Positions 30,848 to 46,668 of a stretch of DNA of 64,000 bases are shown here, one piece after another. The stretch's first letter is position 1. Each line of letters starts with the position of its first letter. The translations under genes and the position numbers were made by a program. The notes beneath the pieces were generated by a model, which was given only the letters and a program-made list of their open reading frames with translations, was not told where the DNA came from and did no database searches. The stretch is from Clostridiales bacterium (GTDB taxonomy: Bacteria; Bacillota; Clostridia; Saccharofermentanales; Saccharofermentanaceae), in assembly GCA_017513085.1 (NCBI GenBank), contig JAFWDK010000029.1, positions 64,001 through 128,000 on the forward strand. Reading direction: 5' to 3'.

Positions 30848-31496
30848 GGAAAAGAAGGTGTATTTCATCGTGACATATGATGGCATAAATGCCTGCAATC
30901 ACGAGCTTTTCTGTGATAAAGGTTTCCTCATCATGGAGCTGGATGTGGATAGCAGGAAATTTAGCGGCATGAATGGAAAGGTGAATCAGTATCCATACAT
31001 TGTAGTGAATGAGAATATGTCTCCGGAGAGGAAGCGATCAACGATCGCGCATGAACTCGTTCATATCATGTTCTCGGATAAGAATTGTTCAGAAGAAGCA
31101 GAGAAAGAAAAACGAGCAACAGCCGTAGCCGGTGCATTTCTCATTTCAATCGATGATGTCCATAGAGAACTTGGCTCCCATAGGACACGTGTTACCAAGG
31201 ATTATATATTGACTTGCGAAGAATACGGTATATCCATGTATCTTCTGGTAAAGCGCGCTGCTTTGGCAGGGATTATATCATCCAGTTTGGAGAAGAACTT
31301 CTATATTCGAGCAAACAAAGCAGGATATCAAACGAATGAACCTGTGTACATTAAAGATCCGGAGTCGCCAACACTTCTGCGTCAACTGGTATACAGAGCG
31401 GTTAACGAGGAAGGCTTGTCGATGGCGCGCGGAGCAGAATTACTCGGGACTAGTATTGCGGAAATGGAGCAGTTTTGTGGATTGGCGGTGACTTGA
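30846..31496 (+). pseudogene. 5'-truncated ImmA/IrrE (peptidase M78) gene
   Basis: ERKRSTIAHELVH, AVAGAFLI and EEYGISM motifs; no N-terminal HTH, no RBS; the ATG is formed at the att junction. Confidence 0.7.
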
Positions 31497-31509: not shown

Positions 31510-31548
31510 AGTAATCTTATACGCATCGCTTCTTTTCTGAATCTGCAT
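31510..31548 (-). pseudogene. Integrase N-terminal stub (MQIQKRSDAYKIT)
   Basis: Near-identical to the first 13 codons, RBS and upstream region of the integrase starting at 39550. Confidence 0.85.
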
Positions 31549-31675
31549 AGTATCACCTCCTGAACACTTGAGAATAAGCGCTTTTTCAGCTGTGCTGCAT
31601 ACATTGCAAATCGGACTCTGTCCCAATATTGGGACAGAATTATTTGGCGCGCCGTATTGTTTTCAAAATGCAAAT

Positions 31676-31736
31676 CGAAATGTTGTCGAAATGTTCCGAA
31701 ATGTTGCCGAAATGTCATAGAAAAGTTCCGAAATGT
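31676..31736. repeat. Helically phased CGAAATGT direct repeats
   Basis: Copies start at 31676, 31687, 31697, 31708, (31719 degenerate) and 31729; three more at 39690, 39701 and 39711. Confidence 0.85.
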
Positions 31737-31768: not shown

Positions 31769-33172
31769 ATGAAAATCAGTGAGTTATTTCCCGATGTCAT
31801 GTGTGAAGATTTGAATTATGAGTATAAGGCTGTCTTGAACCCTGATCATATTGTCAAATGGGCAAAAACTATTGTTGGATTTGCAAATGATAAAGGCGGA
31901 ATAATATTCATAGGTGTTGCAAATGACGGAGAAACATTTGGCCTTTCACTTGAAGATATTGATGCTACGAAACTCCTTGTATCTCAGGTAAACGACAGAA
32001 ACATATTTCCTCATGTAAAGTATACATATATGTTGCGAAGTGTGGATGAAAAAGCAGAAAAGTACGTGTTGGCGCTTAAAGTCAAACCATCAGACTCGAT
32101 TGTAAGATACCGCGAGGGCGACTATAACGAGACAGTTTATATCAAAGGGGACGGAAACACAACTCCAGCAACCCCAGAAGAGATAATCGCATTGTCAAAG
32201 CGAAAATACGGGGTAGATAACGAAACAAGTGAAATCAAATATAGCAGCAGGGAATGGAAAGATTATTTAGATCTGTGCAAAGAATACCGGTCTGATTCAT
32301 CTGCTCCTACACTTAAAGAATTGCAAAATGAGGAAGTCGTTTCAAAGGATGGTTTTGCAAAAACGGGACTGCTCATGTTTAAAGACAATTATGAAGGTGA
32401 TGATACGCTGATTTGTTGCCGCCTTTGGAAGGGTGACAAGAAGATTGGAGATGCGCTTGATAGCGACAGGTTTAAAGGGCCGATTTCTACAGTTTTCAGA
32501 AATGCAATAAGATTTATCGAGCGTAATACAAAAACAGGCTGGCGCAAAGTTGAAGAAGGCGGACGAGAAGAAATTCGTTCTTATCCGGCAGAAGCAATAA
32601 GAGAAGCACTTGTTAATGCTATTGCCCATCGTGATTATTCGATTTCCGGTACTCAGATAGATATAGATATTTATAGTGACAGGATCGATATTGTCTCGCC
32701 AGGCTCATGGTTGCTTCCCAGATCATATGAAGAGTATCCTCTAGGTTCTATTCCTTCTATAAGGAGAAACGCAATAATCGCCGCATGTCTTGATATAGCA
32801 AATCTGATGGAGCGAGGCGGAACCGGATTTCAGACTATAATTGAAAGCTACAAAGATGCTGGGGAAGCAAAACAGCCCGGCGTATTAATATATCCGGGAT
32901 TCCTTGATTTGCGGCTTTTTGATTTGTTGTATGATACACAGACAGTAAATGAAGATCTCTCTGATAAGGATAAAGTCATAGAGTTGCTTCGAGTAAAGCC
33001 TTGTTCTGTAAAAGAATTGCAAGCGGTAACGCACTATAGCAGTAGGAGTACTTTTTTGTCGGAGATACTTAATCCGTTATTAAAAGAGGGCATAGTTTAT
33101 CGTGAGGGTAATCCTAAATCGCCGAGGTCTTTGATTAAAATCTCAAATCCATCGCAACATAACAAAACCTGA
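31769..33172 (+). CDS. Schlafen/AlbA_2 + HATPase_c_4 + winged-HTH protein
   Basis: EDLNYEYK, IVGFANDKGGIIFIGV; YPAEAIREALVNAIAHRDY, RIDIVSPG, RNAIIA, MERGGTG. Confidence 0.9.
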   Translation: MKISELFPDVMCEDLNYEYKAVLNPDHIVKWAKTIVGFANDKGGIIFIGVANDGETFGLSLEDIDATKLLVSQVNDRNIFPHVKYTYMLRSVDEKAEKYVLALKVKPSDSIVRYREGDYNETVYIKGDGNTTPATPEEIIALSKRKYGVDNETSEIKYSSREWKDYLDLCKEYRSDSSAPTLKELQNEEVVSKDGFAKTGLLMFKDNYEGDDTLICCRLWKGDKKIGDALDSDRFKGPISTVFRNAIRFIERNTKTGWRKVEEGGREEIRSYPAEAIREALVNAIAHRDYSISGTQIDIDIYSDRIDIVSPGSWLLPRSYEEYPLGSIPSIRRNAIIAACLDIANLMERGGTGFQTIIESYKDAGEAKQPGVLIYPGFLDLRLFDLLYDTQTVNEDLSDKDKVIELLRVKPCSVKELQAVTHYSSRSTFLSEILNPLLKEGIVYREGNPKSPRSLIKISNPSQHNKT

Positions 33173-33487
33173 GACTGACTGATTACCGTCAACGACCGTC
33201 AACTCTCGTTGATCATCGTTGATCATAAGTATATATCGGTAGCTGCCCAATATTGACCCAGTGGAAGAGGCAATTCATTCTCACGCCCAGCACGCCCAAA
33301 CGAATCCTCACGAACACGCAGCAAGAATAAAACCAGCGCAAATTCTTACCTCTTTTGTTAAAAAAGACAAAATACAATCCGATATATGTGAATATTTGTG
33401 CCAAGTGACGATTTCTCAATTTTATTGTAAGAATAACGACTATAATATCGCTATATGTGTTGAAAGATGACGCGGAGGACAATGCGT

Positions 33488-34045
33488 ATGGATGACGGAA
33501 AGATTGTAGATTTGTTTCTAGCAAGAGATGAAAATGCAATCAGACAGGTGTCGCTAAAATATGGAGGCCTATTGAGAACAGTATCCTACAGGATAACCGA
33601 AGATATTGAAACAGCCAAAGAATGCGAGAATGATACATATTTGCAAGCGTGGAATCTAATTCCGCCACACAAACCATATGATTATTTGATCGCATTTCTG
33701 TCAAGAATAGTTCGTAACGTTTCTATAGATCGTTGTCTTCGCGAGGAACGGTTAAAACGAAAAGGATACCTTGTAGAGTTGTCTGTTGAGATGGAGCAGT
33801 TCCTTCCTGCGGAAGAGTCAATCGAAACAGAAATTGATCGGAAAGTATTGGCAGATGCAATTAGTAACTTTCTTTTGATGCAGTCCAAAGAAAAACGCAT
33901 AATCTTCATGCGACGATACTTTGAATTTGAAACAGTCTCATCGATTTCAAAGAATATGCGATGTAAAGAAAGCAGAGTTTATACTCTACTCCATCGAATG
34001 AGACAAGATCTCCGAAAGTATTTGAAGAAGGAGGAAGTTATATGA
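33488..34045 (+). CDS. ECF sigma factor, cassette 1
   Basis: MDDGKIVDLFLARDENAI, ECENDTYLQAWNLIPP, IFMRRYF; paralog of cassettes 2-4. Confidence 0.9.
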   Translation: MDDGKIVDLFLARDENAIRQVSLKYGGLLRTVSYRITEDIETAKECENDTYLQAWNLIPPHKPYDYLIAFLSRIVRNVSIDRCLREERLKRKGYLVELSVEMEQFLPAEESIETEIDRKVLADAISNFLLMQSKEKRIIFMRRYFEFETVSSISKNMRCKESRVYTLLHRMRQDLRKYLKKEEVI

Positions 34046-34548
34046 GTTTCGAGGAAAGATTGCTACTGATATCAGATATAGATAGCAAGTTAATAGAAGA
34101 ACTTGCTGATGATTATAGAAATGAACAGAAGAAATCAGTAACAAAACTGCAAATAGGTGTGATTGTGGGTATTTGCGCTACGCTGGCTTTGGTTATTGGG
34201 ATTTTTTTGTGGAAAAATGGCTCGCGACCCCAAAATACTATAGAGAGTTCTTCCACTGACGTTACTTATTTTGCTTTGAATTCAATAGTAACTATTAATG
34301 GAATTGAATATGTTCCTTCTGGTCCAGCAACCTTTCGAGAATATACACTCCCAGCCAATAACGATATTACGGAAGCTGATCTAGGTAAAAGCATTGGAGA
34401 AGTAGAGCATTGCATTTCTTCACCTGAATTGTTGGGAAAGAAAGCATACTTCTATTCTAAAGACCAGAGTAATGGAATGGTTATCATTCTTGATATCGGT
34501 GGAACTTATGAATTCTATGAACGTGTAGATGGAGGAGGTGATAAATAA
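34042..34548 (+). CDS. Putative anti-sigma factor, cassette 1
   Basis: ATGA overlap with sigma; N-terminal ISDIDSKLIEE, single TM, short external domain. Confidence 0.75.
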   Translation: MSFEERLLLISDIDSKLIEELADDYRNEQKKSVTKLQIGVIVGICATLALVIGIFLWKNGSRPQNTIESSSTDVTYFALNSIVTINGIEYVPSGPATFREYTLPANNDITEADLGKSIGEVEHCISSPELLGKKAYFYSKDQSNGMVIILDIGGTYEFYERVDGGGDK

Positions 34549-34617
34549 TAACAGGAATTATGACTTTAATGTAACTTCCAGACACCCAAGAACAAGTCTT
34601 TAAAAGGAGGGACTCAT

Positions 34618-35268
34618 ATGAAAAAGATTGCAATAGGAATGAAGTTTTTATGTGCACTGCTTACGGCATCACTGATCTTTACTTCTGGTTCCGTAGTAGA
34701 AGCAAGTGGATCTGAAGAAGTGATTACATTAGAAGCAGCAGTTGATTCTGAAAACAACTCATTGGATTCAAATACCATTTCAGAAGCAGATTTTGAGTAT
34801 TCAAATTTGATAAATCAAGAATTTGATACTTTGGTAGCGCACTGGGGCGGAGAGTACCCAATATACTATGCAGGGGCATTCATTGCCGATAGGCAGTTTA
34901 CTATTTTAGTAACATGCGAACCACAAGATGTTCAGGATGAGATTTGGACTATAACAGGAAACAGAGATATCATTGTCGCTAAGGCATCGAACTCGTACAA
35001 TGACTTGAAGAACCTTCAGGACCAGATTACCGAGTTGGTGACAAACTTGCAATCAGAGGGAGATCGTGTAGCAAATCTTGTTGTCGGGATAGGTGTAGAC
35101 GAAATCCAAAATGACGTTTTTGTAGAAGTACTAAACATGGATGAAACTGTTCGAGAAGAAGTAGAAACAATGCTTGAAGCATATAGTTCAGTTCGTCTAG
35201 TAGCTAAGGATTCTCCCTATGAAGAAATGACAAATATTCTCAGTAGCATGAATGGGAGCCTCTACTAA
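34618..35268 (+). CDS. Secreted acidic protein, resembling a protease pro-region without a catalytic domain
   Basis: Signal peptide; YYAGAFI, SYNDLKNLQDQI and GIGVDEIQNDVFVEV; RBS AAGGAGG. Confidence 0.6.
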   Translation: MKKIAIGMKFLCALLTASLIFTSGSVVEASGSEEVITLEAAVDSENNSLDSNTISEADFEYSNLINQEFDTLVAHWGGEYPIYYAGAFIADRQFTILVTCEPQDVQDEIWTITGNRDIIVAKASNSYNDLKNLQDQITELVTNLQSEGDRVANLVVGIGVDEIQNDVFVEVLNMDETVREEVETMLEAYSSVRLVAKDSPYEEMTNILSSMNGSLY

Positions 35269-35747
35269 TGGATAACAAGAAAAAATATATTTTGATTGCG
35301 GGAGCACTTTTGATCCTTAACCTCGGTTTCACATCTTGTTCTTCTAAAGCAAGTAATCCATACCAAGAGAAATCGAGTGTTGTTTATCAGGTAACTGAAT
35401 CCACTGTGTCTATCAAAGCCAGCGTTTTACCTAATCAAGTGCTGGATCTAAGTATTATGAATCAGAGCTCAAAACATTGTTCGATTGGAGAGGATTATGC
35501 TATTGAATACAACTTTGAGGGAGATTGGTATGTTGTGCCAATCAAACCCAACACAGCTTTTCCGGCAATCGGCTATTTCATCGAACCAGGCGAAGAACGT
35601 TCTTTTACTGTTGAACTTAAGGAGTATTTTGACGTTCTGCCTTCTGGGCACTATCGTATTATCAAGGAGATGATCCTTCGTGACGATGTAGATGAATTTG
35701 CCAATGAGAATAACAGAGGTATCCTTGTAGCAGAGTTTGATATCTGA
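35268..35747 (+). CDS. Lipoprotein with Ig-like domain
   Basis: Lipobox FTSC; GEDYAIE..GDWYVVP, IEPGEE, LPSGHYRIIKE. Confidence 0.75.
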   Translation: MDNKKKYILIAGALLILNLGFTSCSSKASNPYQEKSSVVYQVTESTVSIKASVLPNQVLDLSIMNQSSKHCSIGEDYAIEYNFEGDWYVVPIKPNTAFPAIGYFIEPGEERSFTVELKEYFDVLPSGHYRIIKEMILRDDVDEFANENNRGILVAEFDI

Positions 35748-35831
35748 TTCTTGAGCTTCAGCTCATTGAGAGAAGTTTTAATTTGTAAATGGGAGGCGAG
35801 TGTTTTGAGAATACGACAAAAATGTATATTG

Positions 35832-36182
35832 ATGAGCATAGTTTATGATCAAAAAGTGATTGGAATCATCACTCTTCTTCGAGGCGATGACGGATCGATA
35901 ATGACTACAGTTTCCAAGAAACCAGACACAGTAGTCATGGGATTTGACGGGCCGGTCCCATCTGTTATTGAAGTGTTGGATTCACTTCTGAAATCGGCTC
36001 CGAATGAAAAGTATCTGGTGGCATATTATGGTGCGTTTGCGTATTTGCTTGATTCAAACAATGCGTTTCATTGCTTGGGTGAGAATAATAATCTGATTAC
36101 TGTTACGAACGGAGAAACTTTATACAAAAATCTATATAACGAACAGTCTACAGTTTCCGGTGAGATTCTAGATGAGAAGTAA
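35832..36182 (+). CDS. Hypothetical protein or gene fragment
   Basis: Open frame with protein-like composition; start uncertain, no clear RBS. Confidence 0.4.
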   Translation: MSIVYDQKVIGIITLLRGDDGSIMTTVSKKPDTVVMGFDGPVPSVIEVLDSLLKSAPNEKYLVAYYGAFAYLLDSNNAFHCLGENNNLITVTNGETLYKNLYNEQSTVSGEILDEK

Positions 36183-36410
36183 GTTTCTTAGTTTATAGCG
36201 GATTCATACCTTTTGAGAAGCACGAAAGATGCGATATGAATTGGCTGGAATACGAATGTTGTGGCATTGTTTGGCATAATGCTATATAGGTGAGAAAAAA
36301 CATGACTGTCCCCAAATTGTCCCCAAATCAGAGGAAAATGCCCGTTTCTGGACGGTTCCTTAGAGGAAACAAGAAACCCCGCAACCGTTGTGGATGCGGG
36401 GTTTTCGCTT

Positions 36411-36456
36411 TGGAGCCGATTGCGAGACTCGAACTCGCGACCTGCTGATTACAAAT
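36411..36456 (-). repeat. att copy 2 (junction between elements A and B)
   Basis: 46 bp identical to the tRNA-Thr 3' part, beginning at the anticodon loop. Confidence 0.95.
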
Positions 36457-36570
36457 AGCGGAAGGGGTGTTTTTTATCGTTTTATAAATGCGCCTTTGAT
36501 GCCTGAAAACAGGGCGTTTGACAGATTTATCGTCGCTTATCGTTTTGCCTGTTTTTATATGATTTTTTGT

Positions 36571-36596
36571 AAAATAAACACCAAATAAACACCAAA
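36571..36596. repeat. Putative integrase arm-type sites (AAATAAACACC x2), left end of B
   Basis: 26 bp identical to 48862-48887; TTATCGT repeats lie between core and arm. Confidence 0.75.
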
Positions 36597-36752
36597 AATC
36601 GTTTCAGGATACTTGCTGGCATCTTTAGCTTTTTCTTTTTGAGAAGAGAAAAACGTGATGACTTTTCAGAAATTTTCCCAATAGTGTAACCATATGTGAG
36701 AAAATGTCGCTAATAAGGGTGAATGCGCATGAAGAAAACGGAGGAGAGTTTC

Positions 36753-37313
36753 TTGGAAGACGATAAGATCGTAGATTTATTCTTATCCAGAGACGAACAG
36801 GCTATCACTGAGACGTCAAAGAAATACGGCAAGCGGCTTCGACGGATCGCATTTGATATCCTGTGCGACCACGAGGCGGCGGAAGAGTGCGAGAACGATG
36901 CGTACTTAAAGACATGGAACCTGATTCCACCTCACGAACCGCGGACCTACCTCTTTGCATTTGTCGGAAGGATCATCAGACACTGTGCGCTGGATATCTG
37001 TAAGGCCAATCGCCGGCAGAAGCGGTATGCCGTGTATAGTGAACTGACACAGGAGATGCAGGAATGTATTCCGGCGCCCTATTCTACAGAAGCGGAGATG
37101 GACAGGCTTTGCCTCAAGGAACTCTTGGAAACCTTTCTGGATTCCTGCTCTGAAGAGCAGCAGAGAGTGTTTGTTAGAAGATACTGGTACTTCGAATCCG
37201 TCGAAAGTATTGCCAAAAGATATGGTATGACGCAAAGCAAAGTCAAGACAGTGCTTTTCCGGATGAGAAAGAAACTGAAAGAGAATCTGAAAAATGGAGG
37301 TTATTCACTATGA
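36753..37313 (+). CDS. ECF sigma factor, cassette 2
   Basis: EDDKIVDLFLSRDEQAI, ECENDAYLKTWNLIPP, VFVRRYW; TTG start after GGAGGAG (ATG 36723 is an alternative). Confidence 0.9.
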   Translation: MEDDKIVDLFLSRDEQAITETSKKYGKRLRRIAFDILCDHEAAEECENDAYLKTWNLIPPHEPRTYLFAFVGRIIRHCALDICKANRRQKRYAVYSELTQEMQECIPAPYSTEAEMDRLCLKELLETFLDSCSEEQQRVFVRRYWYFESVESIAKRYGMTQSKVKTVLFRMRKKLKENLKNGGYSL

Positions 37314-38329
37314 CGGGTCACGATTTATTGGATACTTTAGGCGATATTGATGCCCGATTCCTTCGGAACGAGGCGGATATGCAGGCAAAGAACGACGGAA
37401 AATACATGTGGTTGGCTGTTGCTGCCGCGCTTCTGGTGATTGCAGGGGGCGTCTATGTCGTTTCAAGATTTGTTCTGCCAGGAAGGCAGGAGGCGAAAGC
37501 CACAGCTGCCGTCACGTATACTGCGCCATCAGAAACGACGAATACTGTCCCAACGTCTTCCACCAATGCGCCGGACAGTAAAGAGCAGGGGGTCTTTGTT
37601 CCTGAAATCGTCCTTCCGGAATCGGAAGAGAAAGGGGCATTGGTGATGATGGATATGGTCGGATTAGTGGTCTATAAGGGCGGCATCTATACGCAGGCTG
37701 AGTACTATGGCGAGCAGGATCTGGAAAAAGTTTCGGAACTGATCGGCGAGCGCCTCGGAACGGCGAAAGGAAATCTGGATGAGTGGTCTTCACAGGATGA
37801 GTACGCGACTGAGTTTGCATCGAATATGGCAGGGGAGGTCTATACGGTCAAGGGCTATGACCCGGACTTCAGAATATGTGTATGTGTATACGAAAATGAT
37901 GATATCCTCCGAATGGTCATGTTCATGGAGCGGATGAATAATATCACGCTTGCCACAGGAGAAGATATCTTCGAGACCCGGTTACACATATACGGGAATG
38001 TGAAATCGGTTCAGAAACAGAGTCAGGAGGATTGGAATAATGGCAGAGGGAACCGAAGTGATGTTTCGATCAGTGACGAAGTCTGGGACGCCTTCTGGAG
38101 AAGCACTAACGAGGCACCTGTCGTTGATACCTGGTCGGACGTGAACGAGGCGGAGAAGTGGTATCGGGAAGGGAAAATCGTTCATCTGTATCTCGAGATG
38201 GAAGACGGGACAGTGAACCATATCCGGCTAAAAGAAGGCGGATATGTCGGCTACACCATAACCCAGGATTCTTTTTGGGTAAAGATCCCTCTTGAAGACT
38301 TTAACAAAGTTTTCGAAGAAGTTCAGTAG
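37310..38329 (+). CDS. Putative anti-sigma factor, cassette 2
   Basis: ATGA overlap; LGDIDARFL N-terminus, TM, Thr-rich linker, large external domain. Confidence 0.78.
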   Translation: MTGHDLLDTLGDIDARFLRNEADMQAKNDGKYMWLAVAAALLVIAGGVYVVSRFVLPGRQEAKATAAVTYTAPSETTNTVPTSSTNAPDSKEQGVFVPEIVLPESEEKGALVMMDMVGLVVYKGGIYTQAEYYGEQDLEKVSELIGERLGTAKGNLDEWSSQDEYATEFASNMAGEVYTVKGYDPDFRICVCVYENDDILRMVMFMERMNNITLATGEDIFETRLHIYGNVKSVQKQSQEDWNNGRGNRSDVSISDEVWDAFWRSTNEAPVVDTWSDVNEAEKWYREGKIVHLYLEMEDGTVNHIRLKEGGYVGYTITQDSFWVKIPLEDFNKVFEEVQ

Positions 38330-38377
38330 TAATGTTGTCCCTCCATTCATTTGCATTATGTTCATGAATGGGGGCTT

Positions 38378-39550
38378 CTAGAGGCTGTAAAGATCATCAA
38401 GGTTGTTGATGGCACGCAGTTTAGCTTCGTTCTGAGGGTTGGCGTATACGTTCATCACAAGTGCCGGTGAACTCTGACCTAGAAGAGCAGCGGTGGTTCT
38501 TGGATCGGTTCCGTTCGCGATCAGGATACTTGCAAAAGTGTGCCGTAGCCCGTGAACAGAGATGCGCGGTACGCCACACCAGGCAAGATATTTATTCAAC
38601 CATTCTCTGAAAGTGCTGTCAAAAATCGGCTTGCCGTCAAGCGTGGTAAATAGACGTGCCTTGTCTCCGTGCTTTCCTTGATAAAGACAGCCAAGCCGTT
38701 TGATCTCGGACTCTTGCCACTTTCGATACTCTTTGAACTCGGCAACAAGTTTGTCCGAGATAGGAATAGAACGAACAGAGGATTTGCTCTTAGGTGTGCT
38801 CTCTATCATGCCGGTTCCAGGAATGTACTGCGAAGTCCTTGTGATGGATATCATGTGCTTCTCGTAGTTGATATCCTGCCATTCAAGACCAGCGGCTTCC
38901 GCTTCGCGAATACCGGTATTAAGGACAAGGAGAATGAACATCCGCGCACGGATATCTTCGTATTCCGGCAGTTTTCGAATGACCTTCTGGGCATCCTTGA
39001 GCTCAAGAGCCTGAACATCGGAGTGGGATTTGGCAGGTGCTTTGACACGTTTACACGGATTTTCGTCAATAAGTTCCCATTCGTATGCTTTCCCTAACAC
39101 TGCGGAAAGTGTCCGAAACCATACTCCAATACTGTTCCGAGAAAGCACGTCCTCTTTTCCATCTTTTCTTACAAGAGAAGAGATCCACCTTCGGATGTCG
39201 AGTGGCGTGATGTTTCTGATCAGCATATCGCCAAAGTAGGGGAGCAGCCTTGATTCTATAACTATTCTGTATCCGCTCGCTGTCTTTGGCTTAAGAAGCG
39301 GAAGATGATTCATGAAGTAAAGTTCCTTGCAGAAAACCCGAAAAGTCATTTTGTTGTACTGCACGTTTGCGCCGCCCTTGACCTTGCGCTCGAAATCTTC
39401 CGCAAACTCAAGAACAGCCTTCTGCTCCTGCTTTGAAGTCAAGCCCTTCGGAGGGACAAACGTTGTGGTCCTTCGGATCTGCTTTCCGTTTTCGTCATAA
39501 CCGCAACTGACGGTAATCTTATACGTATCGCTTCTTTTCTGAATCTGCAT
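38378..39550 (-). CDS. int: Tyrosine integrase
   Basis: N-terminal arm-binding domain (GYDENGKQIR), TGIREAE, TPKS, HGLRHTFAS, LLGQS..NVYAN. Confidence 0.95.
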   Translation of the reverse strand: MQIQKRSDTYKITVSCGYDENGKQIRRTTTFVPPKGLTSKQEQKAVLEFAEDFERKVKGGANVQYNKMTFRVFCKELYFMNHLPLLKPKTASGYRIVIESRLLPYFGDMLIRNITPLDIRRWISSLVRKDGKEDVLSRNSIGVWFRTLSAVLGKAYEWELIDENPCKRVKAPAKSHSDVQALELKDAQKVIRKLPEYEDIRARMFILLVLNTGIREAEAAGLEWQDINYEKHMISITRTSQYIPGTGMIESTPKSKSSVRSIPISDKLVAEFKEYRKWQESEIKRLGCLYQGKHGDKARLFTTLDGKPIFDSTFREWLNKYLAWCGVPRISVHGLRHTFASILIANGTDPRTTAALLGQSSPALVMNVYANPQNEAKLRAINNLDDLYSL

Positions 39551-39807
39551 AGTATCACCTCCTGAACACCTGAGAATAAGCGCTTTTTAAGACGCTTTTT
39601 AAGCTGTGCTACATACATTGTAAATCGGACTCTGTCCCAATATTTGGACAGAATTAATTGGAGTGTCGTATTGTTTTCAAAATGCAAATCGAAATGTTGC
39701 CGAAATGTTCCGAAATGTATTATTTACAATGTGAAGCATATGTGTAACATTCACAGTTCATTTGACGATAATTATAGTAGAAGGCATTTTTCGAGGAGGG
39801 CTATCAG

Positions 39808-40365
39808 ATGGACGACAGCATGATCGTAGATCTGTTTCTGAAACGTGATGAAGACGCGCTTCGTCAAGTAACGGAGAAGTATGGAACTAGGATGCTTCGA
39901 ATTGCTCAGAGAATCACGGAAGATGAAGAAACGGCCAAAGAATGCGTGAATGATGCGTATTTGGAGGCTTGGAAACGGATTCCGCCGAGCGAGCCGCGAG
40001 AGTATCTTATGGCTTTTCTTGCCAAAATTGTTCGTGCGAGGGCATTGGATCGTTGCGCACGTGACCAGCGACTGAAGAGAAAAGCGTATGTTGAGGAGCT
40101 TACTACAGAACTCGAACAATGCATCCCCTCCGGTACAAGTATAGAGGAGGAAATGGACGGCGTCGCTTTTGCCGAAGCCATAGGACGTTTTCTCAAGACC
40201 CAACCACTTGAGAAGTGCCGTGTATTTGTACGACGTTACTATTATCTCGAAAAAACATCTTCTATTGCGCAAAGACTCGGATACAGCGACAACAAAGTCC
40301 GGACAATGCTGTGTAGAATGCGCCGAGAACTAAAGGATTTTCTTATAAAGGAGGAGTTACTATGA
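39808..40365 (+). CDS. ECF sigma factor, cassette 3
   Basis: MDDSMIVDLFLKRDEDAL, ECVNDAYLEAWKRIPP, VFVRRYY; RBS GAGGAGG. Confidence 0.9.
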   Translation: MDDSMIVDLFLKRDEDALRQVTEKYGTRMLRIAQRITEDEETAKECVNDAYLEAWKRIPPSEPREYLMAFLAKIVRARALDRCARDQRLKRKAYVEELTTELEQCIPSGTSIEEEMDGVAFAEAIGRFLKTQPLEKCRVFVRRYYYLEKTSSIAQRLGYSDNKVRTMLCRMRRELKDFLIKEELL

Positions 40366-41012
40366 ACGGGAAAGCAATACTAGATATGATGGGAGATCTG
40401 GATCCGTGTATCGTGCTTGATGCGGAACCGGATATAGTGAATAGAAAAAAGCCTGTTAATTGGAAAATCGTGGGTGCGGTGGCAGCAGGAGTGCTGGTGT
40501 TTTCGTGTGTCGGAATTGGAATCCGACAGATAGCGAAGGCGAAGAAAACCGCATATACGGTCTATCCCGGAAACAGTGAATGGAATGCTCTGGGTGATGT
40601 GGAATCCAAAGTAGCTGCTTGCCGCATTCCGGAGGAGGAACTTCAAGAAATGACGGATGAAGATCTTGTTGAGGCTGTGTTGGAGTATCCATTCTTGCTC
40701 GATCTGTTTACTGTAGATGATGTGAGGGCATGCGTAAAATGGCAAGCGGAAAACTGCGATGCTCTTCGTGAGTTGATCCGACGAGGAACTGCAACGGAGT
40801 TGCTTCTTGCCAAAGTAAAAGAACTATATATAGATGTTCATGTTGAAGGATCTTATGACTTTATGAAGGAACAGCGGCACGACGCACTCTGTTTGATACT
40901 TTTCTATGCTCCAGAGTGCAGAAAGGATCTTACGGAGGAAGATATCGATCTGCTCAAGAGATCTTCTATGGTTAAGGAAACAATTGAAATGTGTGGTGAT
41001 GAAACAGTCTGA
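40362..41012 (+). CDS. Putative anti-sigma factor, cassette 3
   Basis: ATGA overlap; MGDLDPCIVLDA N-terminus, TM, helical external domain (ACRIPEEELQEMTDEDLVEAVLEYP). Confidence 0.75.
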   Translation: MNGKAILDMMGDLDPCIVLDAEPDIVNRKKPVNWKIVGAVAAGVLVFSCVGIGIRQIAKAKKTAYTVYPGNSEWNALGDVESKVAACRIPEEELQEMTDEDLVEAVLEYPFLLDLFTVDDVRACVKWQAENCDALRELIRRGTATELLLAKVKELYIDVHVEGSYDFMKEQRHDALCLILFYAPECRKDLTEEDIDLLKRSSMVKETIEMCGDETV

Positions 41013-41038
41013 AAATGTGAATGCCAAAGGAGATCAGT

Positions 41039-41734
41039 ATGAAATTTAAGAATATAGGTTTTCTGTTGTTTGGATTGTTATTTTTGTGTTCTTGTGGTAC
41101 TCATCAAAAGGAATCAGCGAGTTCGCTTGAACAAAACAATAGCAGTATAACAGAGCGGACACAGTGTAAAACAACTGAATCGACTCGGGAGATGAAGAAT
41201 AAAGTAGCTTCCTATGTTGTAACGTATAAAAATCTTGATGAAATTGAAACAGCATCTGACTTAGTTGTAAAAGTAACGGCTTTGGATTCTGAAGAACTGT
41301 GTTTTAATCAGCCAGATATTGATAACGGAGTCTTTCCCATGGGGTATGTATTAACATCGATTCGGATTGATGCTGTGTACAAATCTAATGACGTTGTGAA
41401 AGTGGGAGATGTGTTGAAAATCGAAGAATATTATACTACATCACTAAATCCGGAAAACAATGCAACTATTATCAATAGCTATGGTTTTTATTGCCCTATG
41501 GTCAAAGAGCATCAGTATATACTTTTTTTACAGAAACCACAGAATACAGGCGATTATGAAATCGTTCGATTTGACCTAGGGAAATATGCTATTAACGACG
41601 CTATTTCTACTTCAGATGATATTCGTAGACTCAGTTGCGAAGAATTAGAGATTTATAGTCAAGATAATCGCATTCAACGAATTCCTTCTGAATATTTTGA
41701 CATTGCTGAACAGGTTAAGAAGAAATACAATTAA
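41039..41734 (+). CDS. Lipoprotein, cassette 3
   Basis: Lipobox LCSC; ASYVVTYKNLDEIETASDLVV, YILFL. Confidence 0.8.
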   Translation: MKFKNIGFLLFGLLFLCSCGTHQKESASSLEQNNSSITERTQCKTTESTREMKNKVASYVVTYKNLDEIETASDLVVKVTALDSEELCFNQPDIDNGVFPMGYVLTSIRIDAVYKSNDVVKVGDVLKIEEYYTTSLNPENNATIINSYGFYCPMVKEHQYILFLQKPQNTGDYEIVRFDLGKYAINDAISTSDDIRRLSCEELEIYSQDNRIQRIPSEYFDIAEQVKKKYN

Positions 41735-41922
41735 GTACTTGGACACATACTAAAATCAACATGTAGACTAGTGTGACATATAATAAAGATTTTAAAGCGC
41801 AAACTTTTGCGCTTTATTTTGCGCTTTAAAAACGCAGTTGCGTTTTTTTCTTTTCAAAGGTACTGTAGTCATGTCAGATTCTCATCGAAATGTCGTCAAT
41901 ATAAGTGAAGGAGGTCATCCGA

Positions 41923-42483
41923 ATGGACGATGAAGGAATAATCCGCTTATATTGGAACAGGGACGAGACCGCGATTTCCGAGACATCTACGAAATACGGG
42001 AAGTACTGTTTCTCGATCGCTTACAGTATCCTCTATAATAATGAGGATTCCGAGGAGTGTGTGAACGATGCCTACACAAAGGTGTGGAATTCGATTCCGC
42101 CGCAAAAGCCCACGGTTTTCTCTGCCTTTATCGGACGTATCGTCCGTAATCTCGCAATTGACCGGTTTAAAAGAAAGACTGCGGAGAAGCGTGGAGGTAA
42201 GAACCTGGATGCGATCTTTGAAGAGATGAATGAAATCGCATCAGATGCACCAGGCCCGGAGGATGAACTTTCCCTTCGCGAACTAGCAAATCTGATCAAT
42301 GATTTTCTTTCTGACCTTCCGGTAGAGAAACGCGTCATGCTCATCCGCCGTTACTGGTATTCGGACGATATCAAGTCAATTGCGAATCGGTTGGGTATGA
42401 GTGAGAATAACGTCTCTGTGTCTATCCGCCGTCTTCGGATGAAGCTCCGGGATTACTTGAAGTCGAGGGGATTTGCACTATGA
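41923..42483 (+). CDS. ECF sigma factor, cassette 4
   Basis: MDDEGIIRLYWNRDETAI, ECVNDAYTKVWNSIPP, MLIRRYW; RBS AGGAGGT. Confidence 0.9.
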   Translation: MDDEGIIRLYWNRDETAISETSTKYGKYCFSIAYSILYNNEDSEECVNDAYTKVWNSIPPQKPTVFSAFIGRIVRNLAIDRFKRKTAEKRGGKNLDAIFEEMNEIASDAPGPEDELSLRELANLINDFLSDLPVEKRVMLIRRYWYSDDIKSIANRLGMSENNVSVSIRRLRMKLRDYLKSRGFAL

Positions 42484-43529
42484 GAAACGAATTTCTGTTT
42501 GAAGCTTTTGGATACATAGATGATGAGTATATCGCGGAAGCAGCGGTTTATCGTAAGTCGCGAAAGTCCGCAGTGTGGGTGCGCTATGCCGGAATCGCAG
42601 CGGCGGTTCTTCTGACCGCCGGGGTATTCTACCTTGTGAAAAGAACTGTTATGCGAAGCAATACCTCCACCGAAGCAACCAGCGTAGCGGACACGGTGCA
42701 GCCGGAGACCGGGATGGAGGAGACGGTTCCAATGGCAAGTCAATATGTCGATCCGACCAAGGATTCTTCTCTTCCGGAAGAGACTATTCAGGGAGATCCC
42801 AAGAGAGCGGAAAATCCGATCTATGGGTTAGTAGTTTTTCCAGATCCTCTGCGTACAGAGATAGAAAAGACGGAGAATAAAAATACAGTATTTACAGTGA
42901 CAATACTGGTTTCCCGATTTGACTTCGTGGATCTGTATCTTTCTGAAGAATATAAGAAGTATGAATCTTCGAAGAACGCGGAGGTCATCCAGCTCTATCG
43001 AGAGGAATTCATACACTGGCTGAATGAGGTGTATATGCCTCAGTTCACCGAGCAGGAATGGGCAGCTATCGAGAAACAGGATTCAGCCGGAGATATCGAT
43101 CTGAATAGTATTTTTGTCGAAGAATGCTGGTCGAAGCAACAATCAGAAGAGACGCAGAAAGAATATGAAGAGGCCAAGAAACTGGCGGAAGAAGCGGAGA
43201 TCGTCTATGCGAACAATACCAGCACAAAACATCTGGTGGAGCTGTATGGCGAGATGGCCAAAGCGGAGGTCGAAAGAGAGATGGAACGGCTTTCAAAACT
43301 GGGTTATGAATTCGAGATCGTGCCGGATCCGAGAATTGGCGATGGTGAAGAAATCGTTGCTGATGGAGAGAATAAGTACTCGATATACAGCGGATTTGCC
43401 GTGAAGGGAAACCTTACGGGAGAACAGCTGTCCAGATTTGAATCAGAAGTAAAACAGAATGATGTGAAGCACAATTACTTTTTCATCTGGCATACGGAAA
43501 ACGGCGATGTAATGATCCCCGGCGAATGA
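42480..43529 (+). CDS. Putative anti-sigma factor, cassette 4
   Basis: ATGA overlap; FGYIDDEYIAEA N-terminus, TM, Thr/Glu linker, external domain. Confidence 0.78.
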   Translation: MRNEFLFEAFGYIDDEYIAEAAVYRKSRKSAVWVRYAGIAAAVLLTAGVFYLVKRTVMRSNTSTEATSVADTVQPETGMEETVPMASQYVDPTKDSSLPEETIQGDPKRAENPIYGLVVFPDPLRTEIEKTENKNTVFTVTILVSRFDFVDLYLSEEYKKYESSKNAEVIQLYREEFIHWLNEVYMPQFTEQEWAAIEKQDSAGDIDLNSIFVEECWSKQQSEETQKEYEEAKKLAEEAEIVYANNTSTKHLVELYGEMAKAEVEREMERLSKLGYEFEIVPDPRIGDGEEIVADGENKYSIYSGFAVKGNLTGEQLSRFESEVKQNDVKHNYFFIWHTENGDVMIPGE

Positions 43530-43544
43530 TGGGAGGCGAGAGAT

Positions 43545-44180
43545 ATGGAAAAGAATTCAGGCAAAACGTTGGCAGCGAAAATACTTGCGATGGTACTGAT
43601 CGTCTCGATGGCGGGTATTTTTCCTGCATGCAAAAAGAAATCGGAGATACCTACGAAAGAGGAGTTCCTGAATGAGCATATCAACGATCCGGATCCACAT
43701 GGTGTGAAGAAACTGGACTTCAACCGCGAGGACCTTATCAAGGCGTGGGGTGAACCGGACGCTGATAAGAGCCGGGGTTCTTCTTATGTTTGGAAGTGCG
43801 GGGATAAATTTATCATTGTCGGAGCTGATCCGGACGATCCGAATAAGATCGAAGAGATGTATGTGTCCTATACGCAGGAACTGGTATATCTGTTCTCGAA
43901 TGCTTCGATAATCTACGTGAGTGCGCGGCAGGACGGTGTGACGGATTATCATAACTGCATCATGGTTGAGGAGATGTATTTTGACAAGGAGACTTTGGCG
44001 TGTCTTGAGAGAGGGACGATCCTGGAGATCGAGTTTGACGGGTACTTTCTCGAAACGTATCCCGGACAGCTGAGCAGTTTGTACTCGGTCAAGGCTACAG
44101 GAAAAGTCGACGAGTCGGAAATGCCGGCGCTACGGGAACAGGAGCAGTATATACGCGAGAATTACACCGGCGAACAATGA
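43545..44180 (+). CDS. Lipoprotein, cassette 4
   Basis: Lipobox FPAC; LIKAWGEPD, EFDGYFLETYPGQL. Confidence 0.8.
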   Translation: MEKNSGKTLAAKILAMVLIVSMAGIFPACKKKSEIPTKEEFLNEHINDPDPHGVKKLDFNREDLIKAWGEPDADKSRGSSYVWKCGDKFIIVGADPDDPNKIEEMYVSYTQELVYLFSNASIIYVSARQDGVTDYHNCIMVEEMYFDKETLACLERGTILEIEFDGYFLETYPGQLSSLYSVKATGKVDESEMPALREQEQYIRENYTGEQ

Positions 44181-44626: not shown

Positions 44627-45178
44627 ATGGGAAGACATGATACGGTAGCCTGGCAGAGAATAATTGCTCTGTGCACGATATACGGAGTAGATATAAACGA
44701 TATTAAGAAGAAGTCCAAGAAGATCCTGTCTCTCTATTCGGATCTTGTTGTACTAAAAAGAGCGAAAGAAGACGAGTTTGCTTTTCTCTATCCCTGTCCA
44801 CCGCTGGACTATATGAAAGCATTGGATATTCTAGATAAACTCGATCCGAATCAAGGGAAACATGACCTTTCGATCATCATATATAACCACATAAAAGTTG
44901 AATGGTTTACGGAACTCGTGGAGGATACAATAGCGAAGCTGAGAGAGTTTCCGGATGGAGACCTGTATTCGGGTGTCATAAACCAATACTATCTGACATC
45001 TTTCGTTCAGGATGATGAGACGATCGCTCACGAACTCCGGGTCGAATACAGTCGGTTATATGATCGGAAACGAGAAGCGATGATCATGTTCGGATTGTGT
45101 CTCTGGCATTATGTTATTCCGCGTAAGCGTGATGAGATGATAAAGCTATCTGACCTTCCTTTCGCTACTATAGATTAG
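44627..45178 (+). CDS. Putative IME transcriptional regulator (DUF1492/sigma4-like HTH)
   Basis: C-terminal ETIAHELRVEYSRLYDRKREA HTH-like segment; RBS AAGGAG; flanked by GTCC repeats. Confidence 0.6.
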   Translation: MGRHDTVAWQRIIALCTIYGVDINDIKKKSKKILSLYSDLVVLKRAKEDEFAFLYPCPPLDYMKALDILDKLDPNQGKHDLSIIIYNHIKVEWFTELVEDTIAKLREFPDGDLYSGVINQYYLTSFVQDDETIAHELRVEYSRLYDRKREAMIMFGLCLWHYVIPRKRDEMIKLSDLPFATID

Positions 45179-45600: not shown

Positions 45601-45636
45601 CAAAGAAGAAACTATATTACAGAAAGGAAAACAACC

Positions 45637-46668
45637 ATGTACAATTCTTATGAACCTTTGGAAACAAAGACGATCGAAGATCTGATGGAAAAAGAATTCG
45701 AAGACAAGCCGCATTTGGTGGATACCCTTCTTCCGGGTGTAGGCGTGTATATTCTGGCAGGCGATCCCAAGAGTGGGAAGTCATGGCTTGCACTTGATCT
45801 GGCACTTCATATTGCTTCAGGAAAGCCAATGTGGGAACACGAAGTCTTTATGACAGAAGTGTTGTATCTGGCACTTGAGGATGGAGAGAAACGGCTGCAG
45901 GACAGAATCCTTCGAAATGGCACAGGAGCTCCACCGGGTTTCTACTATGCAACCAATGCACTGACCGTGCGGGGCGAACTTATCCGTCAGCTTTCAGATG
46001 AAATGAAAAAGCATCCTGGCATAGGCCTTGTCATAATTGACACGCTTGCTGCGGTAAAAGGCGAATCTATCGCAACAGCCAGCATATACCAGGATGATTA
46101 CAACATTATGAGAGCTCTTCACGAGTTCTCTACCAACAATAATATCACGATTCTGGTAATACACCATACCAATAAGAGCAAGTCCCCTTACCCGATGAAC
46201 AACATTTCCGGATCCAATGGAGTGACCGGTGGTGCAGATGGGAGTTTTGTTCTTGAGAAAGACAAGTTTGAAGATGAGGTAGCGAAGCTCTACTGCAGCT
46301 GTCGAGACTATGAGGATCACGTACTTACATTGAAGTTCAATAAGGAGACTTGCAAATGGGAGTGCTTGAAAGATAACTCTTCATATATGGACTCGCTGGA
46401 AAGCGATCCGGATATGCGTAAGGTCGTTGAGTACATCAAGGCGACGAAAGAGTATCGGGGCAGCGCCAGTGAATTGTCACAGAAACTGGAGATCGATAAA
46501 CCGGGCCAGATCCTAAGTGGGAAACTCAGAAGAAAGAGATTGGATCTGGAACGTGCCGGAATCCTCTTCACGAGAAACCGAAGCCGCATCGGAAGAGAAA
46601 TTACTCTCATGCTGATCACCCCAAGCGATCAGGTTCCAAATGTGGAAGGTGGTGGTGACGATGCGTGA
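45637..46668 (+). CDS. AAA_25/RepA-like replicative helicase
   Basis: GDPKSGKS Walker A, VLYLALED, LVIIDT, IHHTNK, SGSNGVTGGAD; start 45637 after GAAAGGA. Confidence 0.88.
   Translation: MYNSYEPLETKTIEDLMEKEFEDKPHLVDTLLPGVGVYILAGDPKSGKSWLALDLALHIASGKPMWEHEVFMTEVLYLALEDGEKRLQDRILRNGTGAPPGFYYATNALTVRGELIRQLSDEMKKHPGIGLVIIDTLAAVKGESIATASIYQDDYNIMRALHEFSTNNNITILVIHHTNKSKSPYPMNNISGSNGVTGGADGSFVLEKDKFEDEVAKLYCSCRDYEDHVLTLKFNKETCKWECLKDNSSYMDSLESDPDMRKVVEYIKATKEYRGSASELSQKLEIDKPGQILSGKLRRKRLDLERAGILFTRNRSRIGREITLMLITPSDQVPNVEGGGDDA

Follow-up and report, generated by a model that had tools for sequence, protein, structure and literature searches.

Organization of the locus

The window, i.e. the whole 64,000-nucleotide stretch of Clostridiales DNA that was analysed, harbours four co-oriented ECF sigma factor genes (S1 to S4, starting at positions 33488, 36753, 39808 and 41923), each with an ATGA overlap to a gene for a partner protein (A1 to A4, of 168, 339, 216 and 349 residues). 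Secreted proteins or lipoproteins are added in three of the four cassettes, and the S2-A2 cassette has no downstream effector gene (Table 1). These features, like the RDE.A, EC.ND.Y...W..IPP and RRY motifs present in all four sigmas, agree with an earlier, sequence-only reading of the locus.

Three copies of the tRNA-Thr 3' core are found, at 30803-30847, 36412-36456 and 48971-49015, and matching TAAACACCAAA arm pairs delimit only 36412-49015 as an IME. The three att cores and their matched arms thus define two units. All four cassettes had been assigned to the cargo of one IME, but only S2 to S4 are inside the TAAACACCAAA-armed element, whereas S1 lies outside it, in a separate remnant.

The IME is 12.6 kb long and possesses a tyrosine integrase, a MOBP relaxase and cognate att ends, with the S2 to S4 cassettes as its whole cargo. 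The boundary between cargo and backbone is constant, at ~44386, in three relatives. None of the ORFs that lie between 36412 and 49015 was identified as a T4SS gene. The 5.6 kb remnant that holds S1, beyond att2, has the make-up of a CIME: att1 and att2 are kept, the integrase is reduced to a 13-codon stub and the relaxase is absent. It has another arm type, TGTCCCCAAAT, together with an AlbA_2 gene and two genes damaged by deletions. The junction of the truncated IrrE/ImmA-like ORF shows ~20 bp of microhomology.

Table 1. Features of the locus (positions in the window)
Feature	Position	Strand	Remarks
att1, tRNA-Thr(TGT) 3'-end copy, outer boundary of remnant	30803..30847	-	contig joins att1-att2, 46 shared bases
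Truncated IrrE/ImmA-like peptidase ORF	30846..31496	+	att arm joined to 3' portion of an HTH_3+M78 gene (346-347 aa)
First 13 integrase codons (stub) with promoter region	31511..31736	-	93-96% identical to 39513-39718
AlbA_2/RecG-C protein, shuffled cargo	31769..33172	+	L019 copy (98% DNA identity) precedes BlaI/BlaR
Putative S1 promoter, TGTAAG-N14-TATCGCTA	33426..33453	+	site seeded motif search
ECF sigma S1	33488..34045	+	
Putative anti-sigma A1, 168 aa	34042..34548	+	family N-terminal motif; TM 38-56
Secreted protein X1a	34618..35268	+	corresponds to external domain of L168 anti-sigma (31% over 123 aa, E 4e-21)
X1b, Big_14 Ig-like lipoprotein	35268..35747	+	Pfam E 7.7e-21
X1c, remnant of a 233-aa lipoprotein gene	35751..36182	+	internal deletion of ~310 bp
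Arm-type repeat pair TGTCCCCAAAT of remnant	36307..36328	+	
att2, IME/remnant boundary	36412..36456	-	att core comparison, metagenome joint
Arm-type repeat pair TAAACACCAAA, IME left end	36575..36596	+	
Putative S2 promoter, TGTAAC-N14-TGTCGCTA	36685..36712	+	site seeded motif search
ECF sigma S2	36753..37313	+	TTG start
Putative anti-sigma A2, 339 aa	37310..38329	+	TM 33-51; AlphaFold pLDDT 79.9
Tyrosine integrase	38378..39550	-	
Putative S3 promoter, TGTAAC-N14-TGACGATA	39743..39770	+	site seeded motif search
ECF sigma S3	39808..40365	+	identical protein in G127, no integrase nearby
Putative anti-sigma A3, 216 aa	40362..41012	+	rare external domain, probably helical, low-confidence model
Lipoprotein X3	41039..41734	+	lipobox in sequence
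Putative S4 promoter, TGTCAG-N16-CGTCAATA	41872..41901	+	site seeded motif search
ECF sigma S4	41923..42483	+	71% identical to copy on MobA element elsewhere in genome
Putative anti-sigma A4, 349 aa	42480..43529	+	
Lipoprotein X4	43545..44180	+	homologue two genes downstream of S4 paralogue, contig C24
Putative regulator, 183 aa, first backbone gene	44627..45178	+	
AAA_25 replication-type ATPase	45637..46668	+	
MobC/NikA-like relaxosome protein	46640..47269	+	
MOBP-type relaxase (PF03432)	47256..48623	+	
Excisionase-like protein	48641..48841	+	TIGR01764 E 3.4e-5, below cut-off
Arm-type repeat pair TAAACACCAAA, IME right end	48866..48887	+	
tRNA-Thr(TGT), integration target	48970..49045	-	

One tRNA-Thr core is common to at least five arm types, and the other occupants of this hotspot encode BlaI/BlaR, two-component systems, ATPases and lipoproteins. 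The local cluster would have arisen by capture, accretion and deletion at this integration site. We also considered an integron-like cassette array and rejected it: neither the S3-S4 interval nor that from A2 to the integrase gene contains an att copy, and by inspection the cassette junctions have no common motif, some of them being microhomology deletions. The IME and its accretion at the tRNA gene are in themselves ordinary.

A family of ECF sigmas and putative anti-sigmas

S1 to S4 are 37-52% identical to one another. All four score above the TIGR02937 cut-off for sigma70-ECF and match Pfam regions r2 and r4. They conform to group 4 ECF sigmas, which have sigma2 and sigma4 but lack sigma3 and are about 185 residues long; the best solved relative of the window's sigmas is SigW (E 8e-13). 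The partner proteins all start with the S/G-D/Y-I/L-D motif that had been noticed initially, followed by one predicted TM segment. Such +1 single-TM partners are encoded next to 68 of the 69 sigmas family-wide, and the ATGA coupling, also found in 68/69, is a family trait not peculiar to this element.

Between 31 and 37 residues precede the TM segment in A1 to A4, and the A2 model has one short, low-confidence helix there. The cytoplasmic parts of A1 to A4 (~30 residues) gave no Pfam or NCBIfam match at cut-off. Class I anti-sigma domains are four-helix cytoplasmic bundles of roughly 70-90 residues, and these cytoplasmic parts are too short to form one, which rules out such a domain. 'Sensor' and 'anti-sigma' are labels that we infer for the +1 proteins.

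The possibility that these sigmas are equally dense across the host chromosome does not hold, as four of the eight family members of the genome are found within 18 kb of its 3.06 Mb. This clustering is not due to chance (binomial probability of about 1e-5, corrected for the number of windows).

Exchange of the external domains

As first noted, the external domains of A1 to A4 have no mutual similarity (best BLASTP E 0.36; HHalign probability ≤1%). Only a minority of the external domains of the family have any known relative, and those of A1, A3 and A4 have none. In the predicted structure of A2, residues 114-211 resemble NisI/SpaI, although the Z scores of 6.0/5.6 are modest (less than 8) and the resemblance may stem from an arrangement that is common; residues 211-339 resemble a clostridial lipoprotein (Z 8.6). 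The small external domain of A1 is common to L166, L172, L167 and L170, and A3 has only two homologues of similar length. DUF4367 and weak DUF4179 matches also occur in the family. Some domains have counterparts in free proteins: the sigma of L168, whose partner carries an X1a-like domain, falls in the S1 clade, and X3 probably belongs to the same domain family as the external domain of the L131 anti-sigma, judging from profile alignment (HHalign 60.6%, E 8e-5; BLASTP not significant).

We grouped 67 pairs into 28 external-domain clusters. The 18 loci of one sigma clade (71-100% identical) represent 11 domain clusters. As BLAST clustering tends to separate remote homologues too finely, the distinct folds number at most 28 and 11, respectively. 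Sigmas that are 97-100% identical are paired with unrelated external domains in a gut serine-recombinase IME: the L211 sigma is 100% identical to that of L215, 99.5% to that of L214 and 96.8% to that of L213, and all their external domains are unrelated. In the L211-type swap, DNA identity breaks at the codons that start the TM segment (position 10685) and is back again past the gene. Two swap alleles of the 18-locus clade were found again in independent genome assemblies. One orthologous chromosomal locus, situated between tuf and genes for arginine biosynthesis, has sigmas of 81-85% identity that are followed by two unrelated domains. Conversely, the A2 domain follows other N-terminus types and also accompanies a sigma that shares only 35% identity with S2 (E 4e-33).

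The external domain of A4 is 34-39% identical to those associated with sigmas only 40-41% identical to S4, but it is unrelated to that of the partner of the 71%-identical S4 paralogue. In the sister clade of S3 (64-68% identity), the anti-sigmas bear a serpin. The near-identical swap cases belong to other hosts and to another IME family; the closest swapped relatives of the window's cassettes are 58-71% identical. Tree incongruence, a check proposed in the sequence-only reading, was observed as well.

Thus, the external domain is an exchangeable part, and recombination occurs at the W-x-K-W-G-A codons that start the TM helix. The design of constant signalling parts with swapped external domains, proposed from the sequence, is borne out by the 97-100% identical sigmas with unrelated domains, the orthologous locus and the trees. 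Nevertheless, it belongs to the sigma family rather than to the IME family. Our literature search found no published description of such external-domain swapping.

Proposed function

A promoter motif search seeded with the four sites of the window gave a mean score of 15.1 for 37 upstream regions, compared with 8.0-9.4 for 10 shuffles. A TGTAAC-type promoter would allow each sigma to transcribe the operon that encodes it. The +1 protein, whose translation is coupled to that of the sigma, would keep the sigma at the membrane through its ~20-residue N-terminal motif. A cue at the external domain would cause the anti-sigma to be cut or reshaped and the sigma to be freed, which would then yield more anti-sigma and downstream lipoprotein; the cues are probably threats to the envelope, for example proteases or antimicrobial peptides. 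By the exchange at the TM-helix codons, a nearly unchanged sigma and putative binding motif are joined to a new domain from the pool of clostridial lipoprotein and secreted domains. The pairs are likely to be autoregulated envelope-threat sensors released by anti-sigma proteolysis and diversified by recombination at the membrane junction, a threat-sensing function deduced from the minority of domains with any known relative.

Serpins were found in all four members scanned of a cluster of ten external domains, and free serpin genes adjoin those for serpin anti-sigmas in L155 and L156. Inhibitory serpins have a small-residue hinge pattern, from which the hinges of most members deviate. This deviation, and the lack of known relatives for most domains, argue against the idea that the external domains are primarily tethered immunity or inhibitor proteins whose supply is titrated by the sigma, making the cassettes polymorphic, self-refilling defence modules and not general sensors. 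The serpin and NisI/SpaI-like domains would fit that idea, as would the free homologues of anti-sigma domains encoded next door (X1a, X3 and the serpin genes), the S2-A2 cassette with no effector gene and the direct binding of lysozyme by RsiV (PMC4183432, PMC5014341). We consider it unlikely as the primary function, and it and the sensor explanation are not mutually exclusive. No orphan silent cassettes or toxin genes were found downstream in the loci listed.

Spread of the cassettes

The recurrence of the three-cassette IME, at ~98% identity and free of its flanks, supports the spread by a mobile element that was proposed initially. Run X10, a gut metagenome from another study, covers 36411-48962 at ~98% identity and a depth of 14.6; for the remnant and the left flank, the depth is zero or close to zero. 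A contig of run X7 joins att1 to att2, skipping the 5609 bp of the remnant. At least half of the words of the three-cassette stretch are present in 14 runs from 7 studies, 2 of these runs possibly being the source and 6 studies remaining without the source's study. The variant with three cassettes probably circulates as one unit at present. Among the metagenome joints listed, none corresponds to an attP circle. Single cassettes are also portable: S2-A2 is 94-96% identical at six other loci with different neighbours, and S3-A3 is 97% identical in another context.

The claim that an IME family stockpiles such cassettes was not supported. Rep/mob backbones 95-96% identical to that of the window carry no pair (G120), no pair (G122, partial contig) or one pair (G125), so that related IMEs without such cassettes, which were to speak against the claim, are largely what these sister-backbone counts reveal. 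Two or more pairs were found at none of the 42 other att-containing loci (many of them fragments, some overlapping), and the 29 integrase-relative loci harbour no family sigma. The relatives of the sigma family are mostly among chromosomal genes, and for most members the nearest 5 kb contain no mobile-element gene. Three pairs also occur in tandem at a site where no mobile-element gene is evident. A dedicated, selected family of integrase/relaxase elements that collects several ECF cassettes as specialized cargo is thus quite improbable, even though the intact IME has no cargo other than three cassettes, metagenomes of several studies contain this version again, and pairs of the family occupy the tRNA-Thr site of G125, G128 and G132 as well as of four metagenome contigs. 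That the sigmas regulate the excision or transfer of their own element on envelope cues, as the integrase gene flanked by S2 and S3 and one weak motif match (score 12.1) over the xis start might suggest, is hardly credible given the sister backbones without these sigmas, the best motif matches upstream of the sigma genes themselves and the distance of >5 kb between most family members and any mobile-element gene.

Taking accretion, portable modules, the proposed working and domain exchange jointly, we consider it fairly likely that the stretch results from tandem accretion of an intact IME and an integrase-less CIME at the 3' end of tRNA-Thr(TGT), with portable, Clostridia-wide cassettes.

Relation to known systems

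Polymorphic toxin/immunity proteins and phage receptor-binding proteins combine a constant N-terminal part, a conserved junction motif and a replaceable C-terminal domain. The same arrangement is found here, but with the variable part on a putative signalling anti-sigma.

The nearest precedents are the SigI/RsgI paralogues and CIME accretion. In the multiple SigI/RsgI pairs of Clostridium thermocellum, the N-terminal region and the TM segment are homologous, the C-terminal extracellular sensing modules differ and recognition is pair-specific; SigI has no sigma4 domain, and the RsgI N-domain is a 50-60-residue beta-barrel (PMC6582324). The window family similarly consists of paralogous pairs with a constant N-terminus, a TM segment and varied external domains. 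However, its sigmas are canonical sigma2+sigma4 ECFs and its cytoplasmic parts have ~30 residues, which rules out SigI/RsgI membership, sigma4 being present and the N-terminus too short. Furthermore, its domains are not carbohydrate-binding modules by Pfam, its swaps are recent (sigmas up to 100% identical) and its pairs ride mobile elements. In IME-CIME accretion, an incoming IME enters the att site of a decayed, att-keeping element, giving composite islands with complex excision (Guedon 2017, PMC5704250); the structure is the same here, with ECF sensing cassettes as cargo.

The mobilizable Tn6104 and Tn6105 of C. difficile carry sigma-factor-like genes, three of them in tandem in Tn6104 (Brouwer 2011, PMC3158075). 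Their products are described as sigma-like helix-turn-helix proteins, and the available text of that report mentions no anti-sigma partner or variable domain (PMC3158075). The gut element of L211-L219 has a similar serine recombinase and MobA/MobL backbone, unlike the window IME with its tyrosine integrase and MOBP relaxase. The Firmicutes groups ECF232, ECF106, ECF235 and ECF23/30 have +1 single-TM anti-sigmas; ECF232 is described with a 'conserved N-terminus' and DUF4367 or WD40 outside, and ECF235 with a TGTAAC -35 element (Casas-Pastor 2021, PMC7826278). Compared by group descriptions, the window family has +1 single-TM partners like these groups and DUF4367 like ECF232, its putative promoters of the TGTAAC type would resemble the -35 element of ECF235, and the supplement text available for that study contains no match to 'serpin' (PMC7826278). 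Within an ECF group, the domains that accompany class I anti-sigma domains are as a rule conserved (PMC7406223), in contrast with the 28 external-domain clusters of the window family.

Implications

We tentatively propose a polymorphic sensing system in gut Clostridia, in which the ECF sigma and the 20-residue motif would act as a socket and the domain would be exchanged at W-x-K-W-G-A from a pool of immunity- or inhibitor-type lipoproteins (serpin, NisI-like and others) under diversifying selection by microbial antagonism. IMEs would trade single alleles or multi-sensor sets, and the serpin alleles would be suicide-substrate protease detectors. The fusion of a serpin to an anti-sigma points to a route by which protease sensing would lead directly to transcription, of which our literature search found no description.

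One widespread, apparently uncharacterized clostridial family changes its putative sensor domain at a defined junction, even where the sigmas are identical. The swap alleles therefore represent natural near-isogenic sets for probing what each domain senses, and the family could be a chassis into which engineered sensors are plugged for use in gut anaerobes. Cassettes on mobile elements may let gut bacteria trade detection abilities.

Four coupled pairs in two units

The sequence-only reading placed four ECF sigma/anti-sigma cassettes in a mobile array carried by one integrative mobilizable element (IME). The four pairs exist, but they are not all cargo of one element. The sigmas S1 to S4 contain the motifs quoted for them, lie above the sigma70-ECF superfamily cut-off and share 37-52% mutual identity. 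Each is coupled by an ATGA overlap to a gene for a putative anti-sigma (A1 to A4) with a single transmembrane (TM) segment. The first ~20 residues of A1 to A4 align with the N-termini of 39 other family members, whereas neither BLASTP nor HHalign relates their external domains to one another. In a search seeded from the window's candidate promoter sites at 33426, 36685, 39743 and 41872, TGTAAC-N14-TGTTGATA was found upstream of most sigmas, its -10 part varying by clade. Contigs of the RNA run X15 cover S2-A2 and S3-A3; such contigs cannot prove transcription, DNA is possibly present, and gaps in their coverage are uninformative.

The 3' 45 bases of tRNA-Thr(TGT) are repeated at att1 and att2, and the tandem arm repeat TAAACACCAAA occurs just inside both ends of the IME. 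The entire cargo of the latter is S2-A2, S3-A3-X3 and S4-A4-X4, where X3 and X4 are lipoproteins, and the S1 cassette belongs to a separate remnant. In that remnant, an ImmA-like gene has lost its 5' part via a microhomology deletion, and a lipoprotein gene has an internal deletion. No integron-like recombination site between cassettes was found on comparing the cassette junctions and att copies.

Four of the 24 listed sequencing runs were compared. One contig of run X7 fuses att1 to att2, alongside contigs covering the remnant. In run X10, two contigs meeting at 37421-37422 span the IME at ~98% identity and a depth of 14.6, and the remnant and left flank have depths of zero or nearly so. Both metagenomes agree with the two-unit structure; together with the att/arm layout, they rule out a single element with four cassettes. 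At least half of the three-cassette stretch was found in 14 runs from seven studies, two of the 14 possibly being the source. The two X10 contigs have equal depth, overlap by 2 bases and each continue 4.5-5.5 kb into other sequence. This break is probably an insertion in the TM codons of A2, where swaps occur, although an assembly artefact is possible. Named relatives of the IME integrase are mainly from assemblies of rumen Clostridia, a Saccharofermentans sp. among them, so the host is probably a related rumen clostridium. The island corresponds to textbook IME-CIME accretion (PMC5704250).

Features of the window and of related loci (window coordinates unless a locus, L, is named)
Feature	Position	Description
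S1; S2; S3; S4	33488; 36753; 39808; 41923	Sigma starts; A1 to A4 of 168, 339, 216 and 349 aa
att1; att2	30803; 36412	
Remnant	att1-att2	5.6 kb; other arm type, 13-codon integrase stub, AlbA_2, S1 cassette
IME	36412-49015	Tyrosine integrase, AAA_25, MobC, MOBP relaxase, excisionase-like gene
tRNA-Thr(TGT)	48970-49045	ARAGORN
Flanking ECF systems	28304-30590; 49174-51374	Other ECF families
64-bp repeat	29099; 30601	Upstream of both genes of the first flanking system
Lipoprotein module	17817-26619	BlaI/BlaR-like pair, three tandem 750-810-aa lipoproteins (SBP_bac_8 in one scanned)
Small protein	8771-9184	Lys/Ala-rich, AKKAAPA repeats
Serpin fusion	L001:8198-9655	Own genome, contig C10
Second mobile element	L004:7155-17175	Own genome, contig C24; MobA/MobL, BlaI/BlaR-like pair; cargo S4 paralogue, DUF4300 lipoprotein, X4 homologue
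Tandem family pairs	L223:9826-14934	Genome G192, three pairs
Gut element (example)	L214:7288-13399	Serine recombinase, small gene, sigma, anti-sigma, DUF3847, MobA/MobL

The island is flanked by two ECF systems. In one, a 470-aa sigma has a TM segment and an outer domain fused to it, and the next gene encodes a lipoprotein whose C-terminal part looks similar; the other has a sigma with a DUF4179/DUF5643-like partner. Modules like the lipoprotein module of the window occur within the tRNA-Thr island of relatives. The small Lys/Ala-rich protein has a histone-like composition.

External domains are exchanged across the family

In the loci collected, a gene coupled by a -4 overlap follows 68 of 69 distinct sigmas. 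The 67 complete pairs fall into 28 external-domain clusters (BLASTP, E 1e-4), a count that represents an upper bound. The cluster differs in 5/19 sigma pairs at least 95% identical and in 7/28 at 80-95%, these pairs being non-independent. In a maximum-likelihood tree of 45 sigmas, from which eight near-duplicate or uncoupled rows were omitted, four domain types require two to three origins. The nearest paralogue of S4, 71% identical, bears an external domain unrelated to that of A4. The A4 domain is also found on partners of sigmas only 40-41% identical to S4 (E 1e-49 to 1e-54) and on a partner from a different ECF family (E 5e-19). The sister clade of S3 (64-68% identical) has serpin external domains. 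Sigmas 81-85% identical also occupy one orthologous site, flanked by arginine-biosynthesis genes and tuf, and are paired there with either A1-type or X1a-type domains, X1a being the secreted protein of the S1 cassette.

The sharpest case is a serine-recombinase element in IMG/VR contigs and gut genomes (L211-L219, L253, L255), situated within gut conjugative elements and with one sigma/anti-sigma pair as its sole cargo. Its small gene, which has no Pfam match, is presumably TnpV-like. Across nine loci, sigma identity is 89-100% and the N-terminal motif is nearly as conserved, yet four unrelated external domains occur. DNA identity stops at the W-x-K-W-G-A codons and returns directly after the anti-sigma gene. 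Chimeric assembly is made less likely by the recovery of two alleles from separate genome assemblies (L253, L255). In the wider sigma clade (71-100%), 18 loci are divided among 11 clusters, including that of the A2 domain. The domain swap is real and family-wide, and the proposed constant signalling part with swapped external domains stands on the cluster, tree and near-identical-sigma evidence.

At locus L249, the same gut-element frame has a different gene in the cargo slot. The external domains at L211 and L257 are 84% identical over 131 aa, but one copy is extended at its C-terminus by a further domain with a weak match to the A1-type profile (E 0.006). This difference suggests that external domains are also appended.

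Nature of the external domains and proposed mechanism

The predicted model of A2 (pLDDT 79.9, 103 sequences) has an N-lobe with a modest likeness to NisI-C (Z 6.0, rmsd 2.9, 67 aligned) and SpaI (Z 5.6, rmsd 3.4, 78 aligned). Its predicted C-lobe resembles a Clostridium perfringens lipoprotein (Z 8.6, rmsd 3.3, 109 aligned). Foldseek with this model gave no match at E <=0.001. Among the 120 A2 homologues listed, most have the family motif at the N-terminus, at least 16 have other anti-sigma-like N-termini and two have a lipoprotein-like signal. A NisI-like domain shared by A1 and A2 had been suspected from a motif; HHalign gave 0.7% (E 0.08), and a second comparison aligned the N-termini only. 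No named relative was found for the external domains of A1, A3 and A4. The single-sequence model of the A3 domain (pLDDT 53.5, best Z 4.3) is uninformative, and the Atlas gave no usable match for A3 or A4, which says nothing on absence or novelty.

Other external domains in the family are serpin, DUF4367 and, weakly, DUF4179. The serpin fusions, found in the own genome and at L151-L159, combine the anti-sigma N-terminal motif, a TM segment and a full serpin (Pfam E 1e-38 to 1e-67 in the four scanned), and possibly represent a protease-sensing ECF system. Free homologues of external domains are frequently encoded alongside: X1a, second serpin genes (L155, L156) and probably X3, for which BLASTP against the L131 external domain was non-significant and the profile match moderate.

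The architecture, the two units, the recovery of the IME without its flanks and the domain exchange with its junction are direct observations. We propose that the +1 protein would bind its sigma and that the external domain would sense an envelope threat, whereupon proteolysis would release the sigma. Release is proposed by analogy with RsiV, which responds in this way to lysozyme (PMC4183432, PMC5014341). Each sigma would transcribe its own operon, and exchange would result from recombination at the conserved junction codons with a second crossover downstream. Taken as a whole, this reading is probably correct. That the modules served immunity first is compatible with it but unlikely.

The array as a by-product of a hotspot

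Stockpiling of cassettes as a trait of an IME family, the other part of the earlier interpretation, is not borne out and we consider it rather improbable. The replication ATPase is present at 99% in 3 of 141 other genomes of the host family (G120, G122, G125), with backbone DNA 95-96% identical and identity stopping at the same point, ~44386. As judged from the ORF lists and from limited Pfam scans, G120 has a Tn916-type integrase and LysR/flavodoxin/reductase-like cargo; the cargo of G122, on a 15.9-kb contig with an interrupted relaxase, comprises permease-like genes, a two-component pair and an ATPase; and G125 has BlaI/BlaR, a large lipoprotein, one family pair and an ATPase. None of these sister backbones has multiple pairs. 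A further 42 loci with att copies, some overlapping and many of them fragments, include nine with a single family sigma; two family sigmas occur in none of them.

At least five arm types use the tRNA-Thr(TGT) hotspot, where cargo is reshuffled as near-identical blocks (S2-A2 at 94-96% in six loci, S3-A3 at 97% in G127, AlbA at 98% in L019). The four-pair array is a by-product of this ordinary hotspot. At loci L186-L205 and L131-L134, a single att core occurs with at least five types of integrase arm. Their units contain, in shuffled order, BlaI/BlaR with large solute-binding-like lipoproteins, XRE-ImmA with PIN, DUF4417, DUF4143 ATPases, AbiEii-type and two-component genes.

The sigma family is common: it is present in 82 of 142 genomes of the host family, and no other contig among the matches listed has a second family sigma within 20 kb. 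It occurs in 64 of 398 class genomes, with eight candidates scored per genome and two genomes left unscored. A close sigma was found in 0 of 56 in the family of G318. The plasmid search returned four records (368-861 kb, non-mobilizable, 37-40% identity). Control of the mobile element by the sigmas is very improbable. Of the eight family members in the own genome, four are S1 to S4; of the others, one, 71% identical to S4, adjoins a MobA/MobL relaxase and three are among ordinary genes. Among 142 ORFs of at least 170 aa from 25 relative loci, 135 have no integrase, relaxase or transposase match at E 1e-12. The three tandem pairs of G192 have neighbours that look chromosomal by their N-termini and no evident mobile-element gene; two of their external domains are homologous and the third is not.

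Relation to known systems

The window pairs would work like the SigI/RsgI paralogues (PMC6582324) but are not members. Sigma-like genes have been recorded on clostridial mobilizable transposons (PMC3158075), as has a genomic island with an ECF regulon (bioRxiv 10.1101/247056), and ECF232 combines a conserved N-terminus with two kinds of outer domain (PMC7826278). The family was compared with ECF groups through their descriptions, and the group tables or models may already include it (PMC7826278). Attached domains are typically conserved inside an ECF group (PMC7406223). The words 'sigma', spelled out or as the Greek letter, and 'ECF' are absent from the main text of a Faecalibacterium IME survey (PMC12084326). 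A literature search, covering mostly papers available without subscription, retrieved no description of recent domain swapping in ECF anti-sigmas or of a serpin anti-sigma. The real finding is the hypervariable anti-sigma family that the array exposes.
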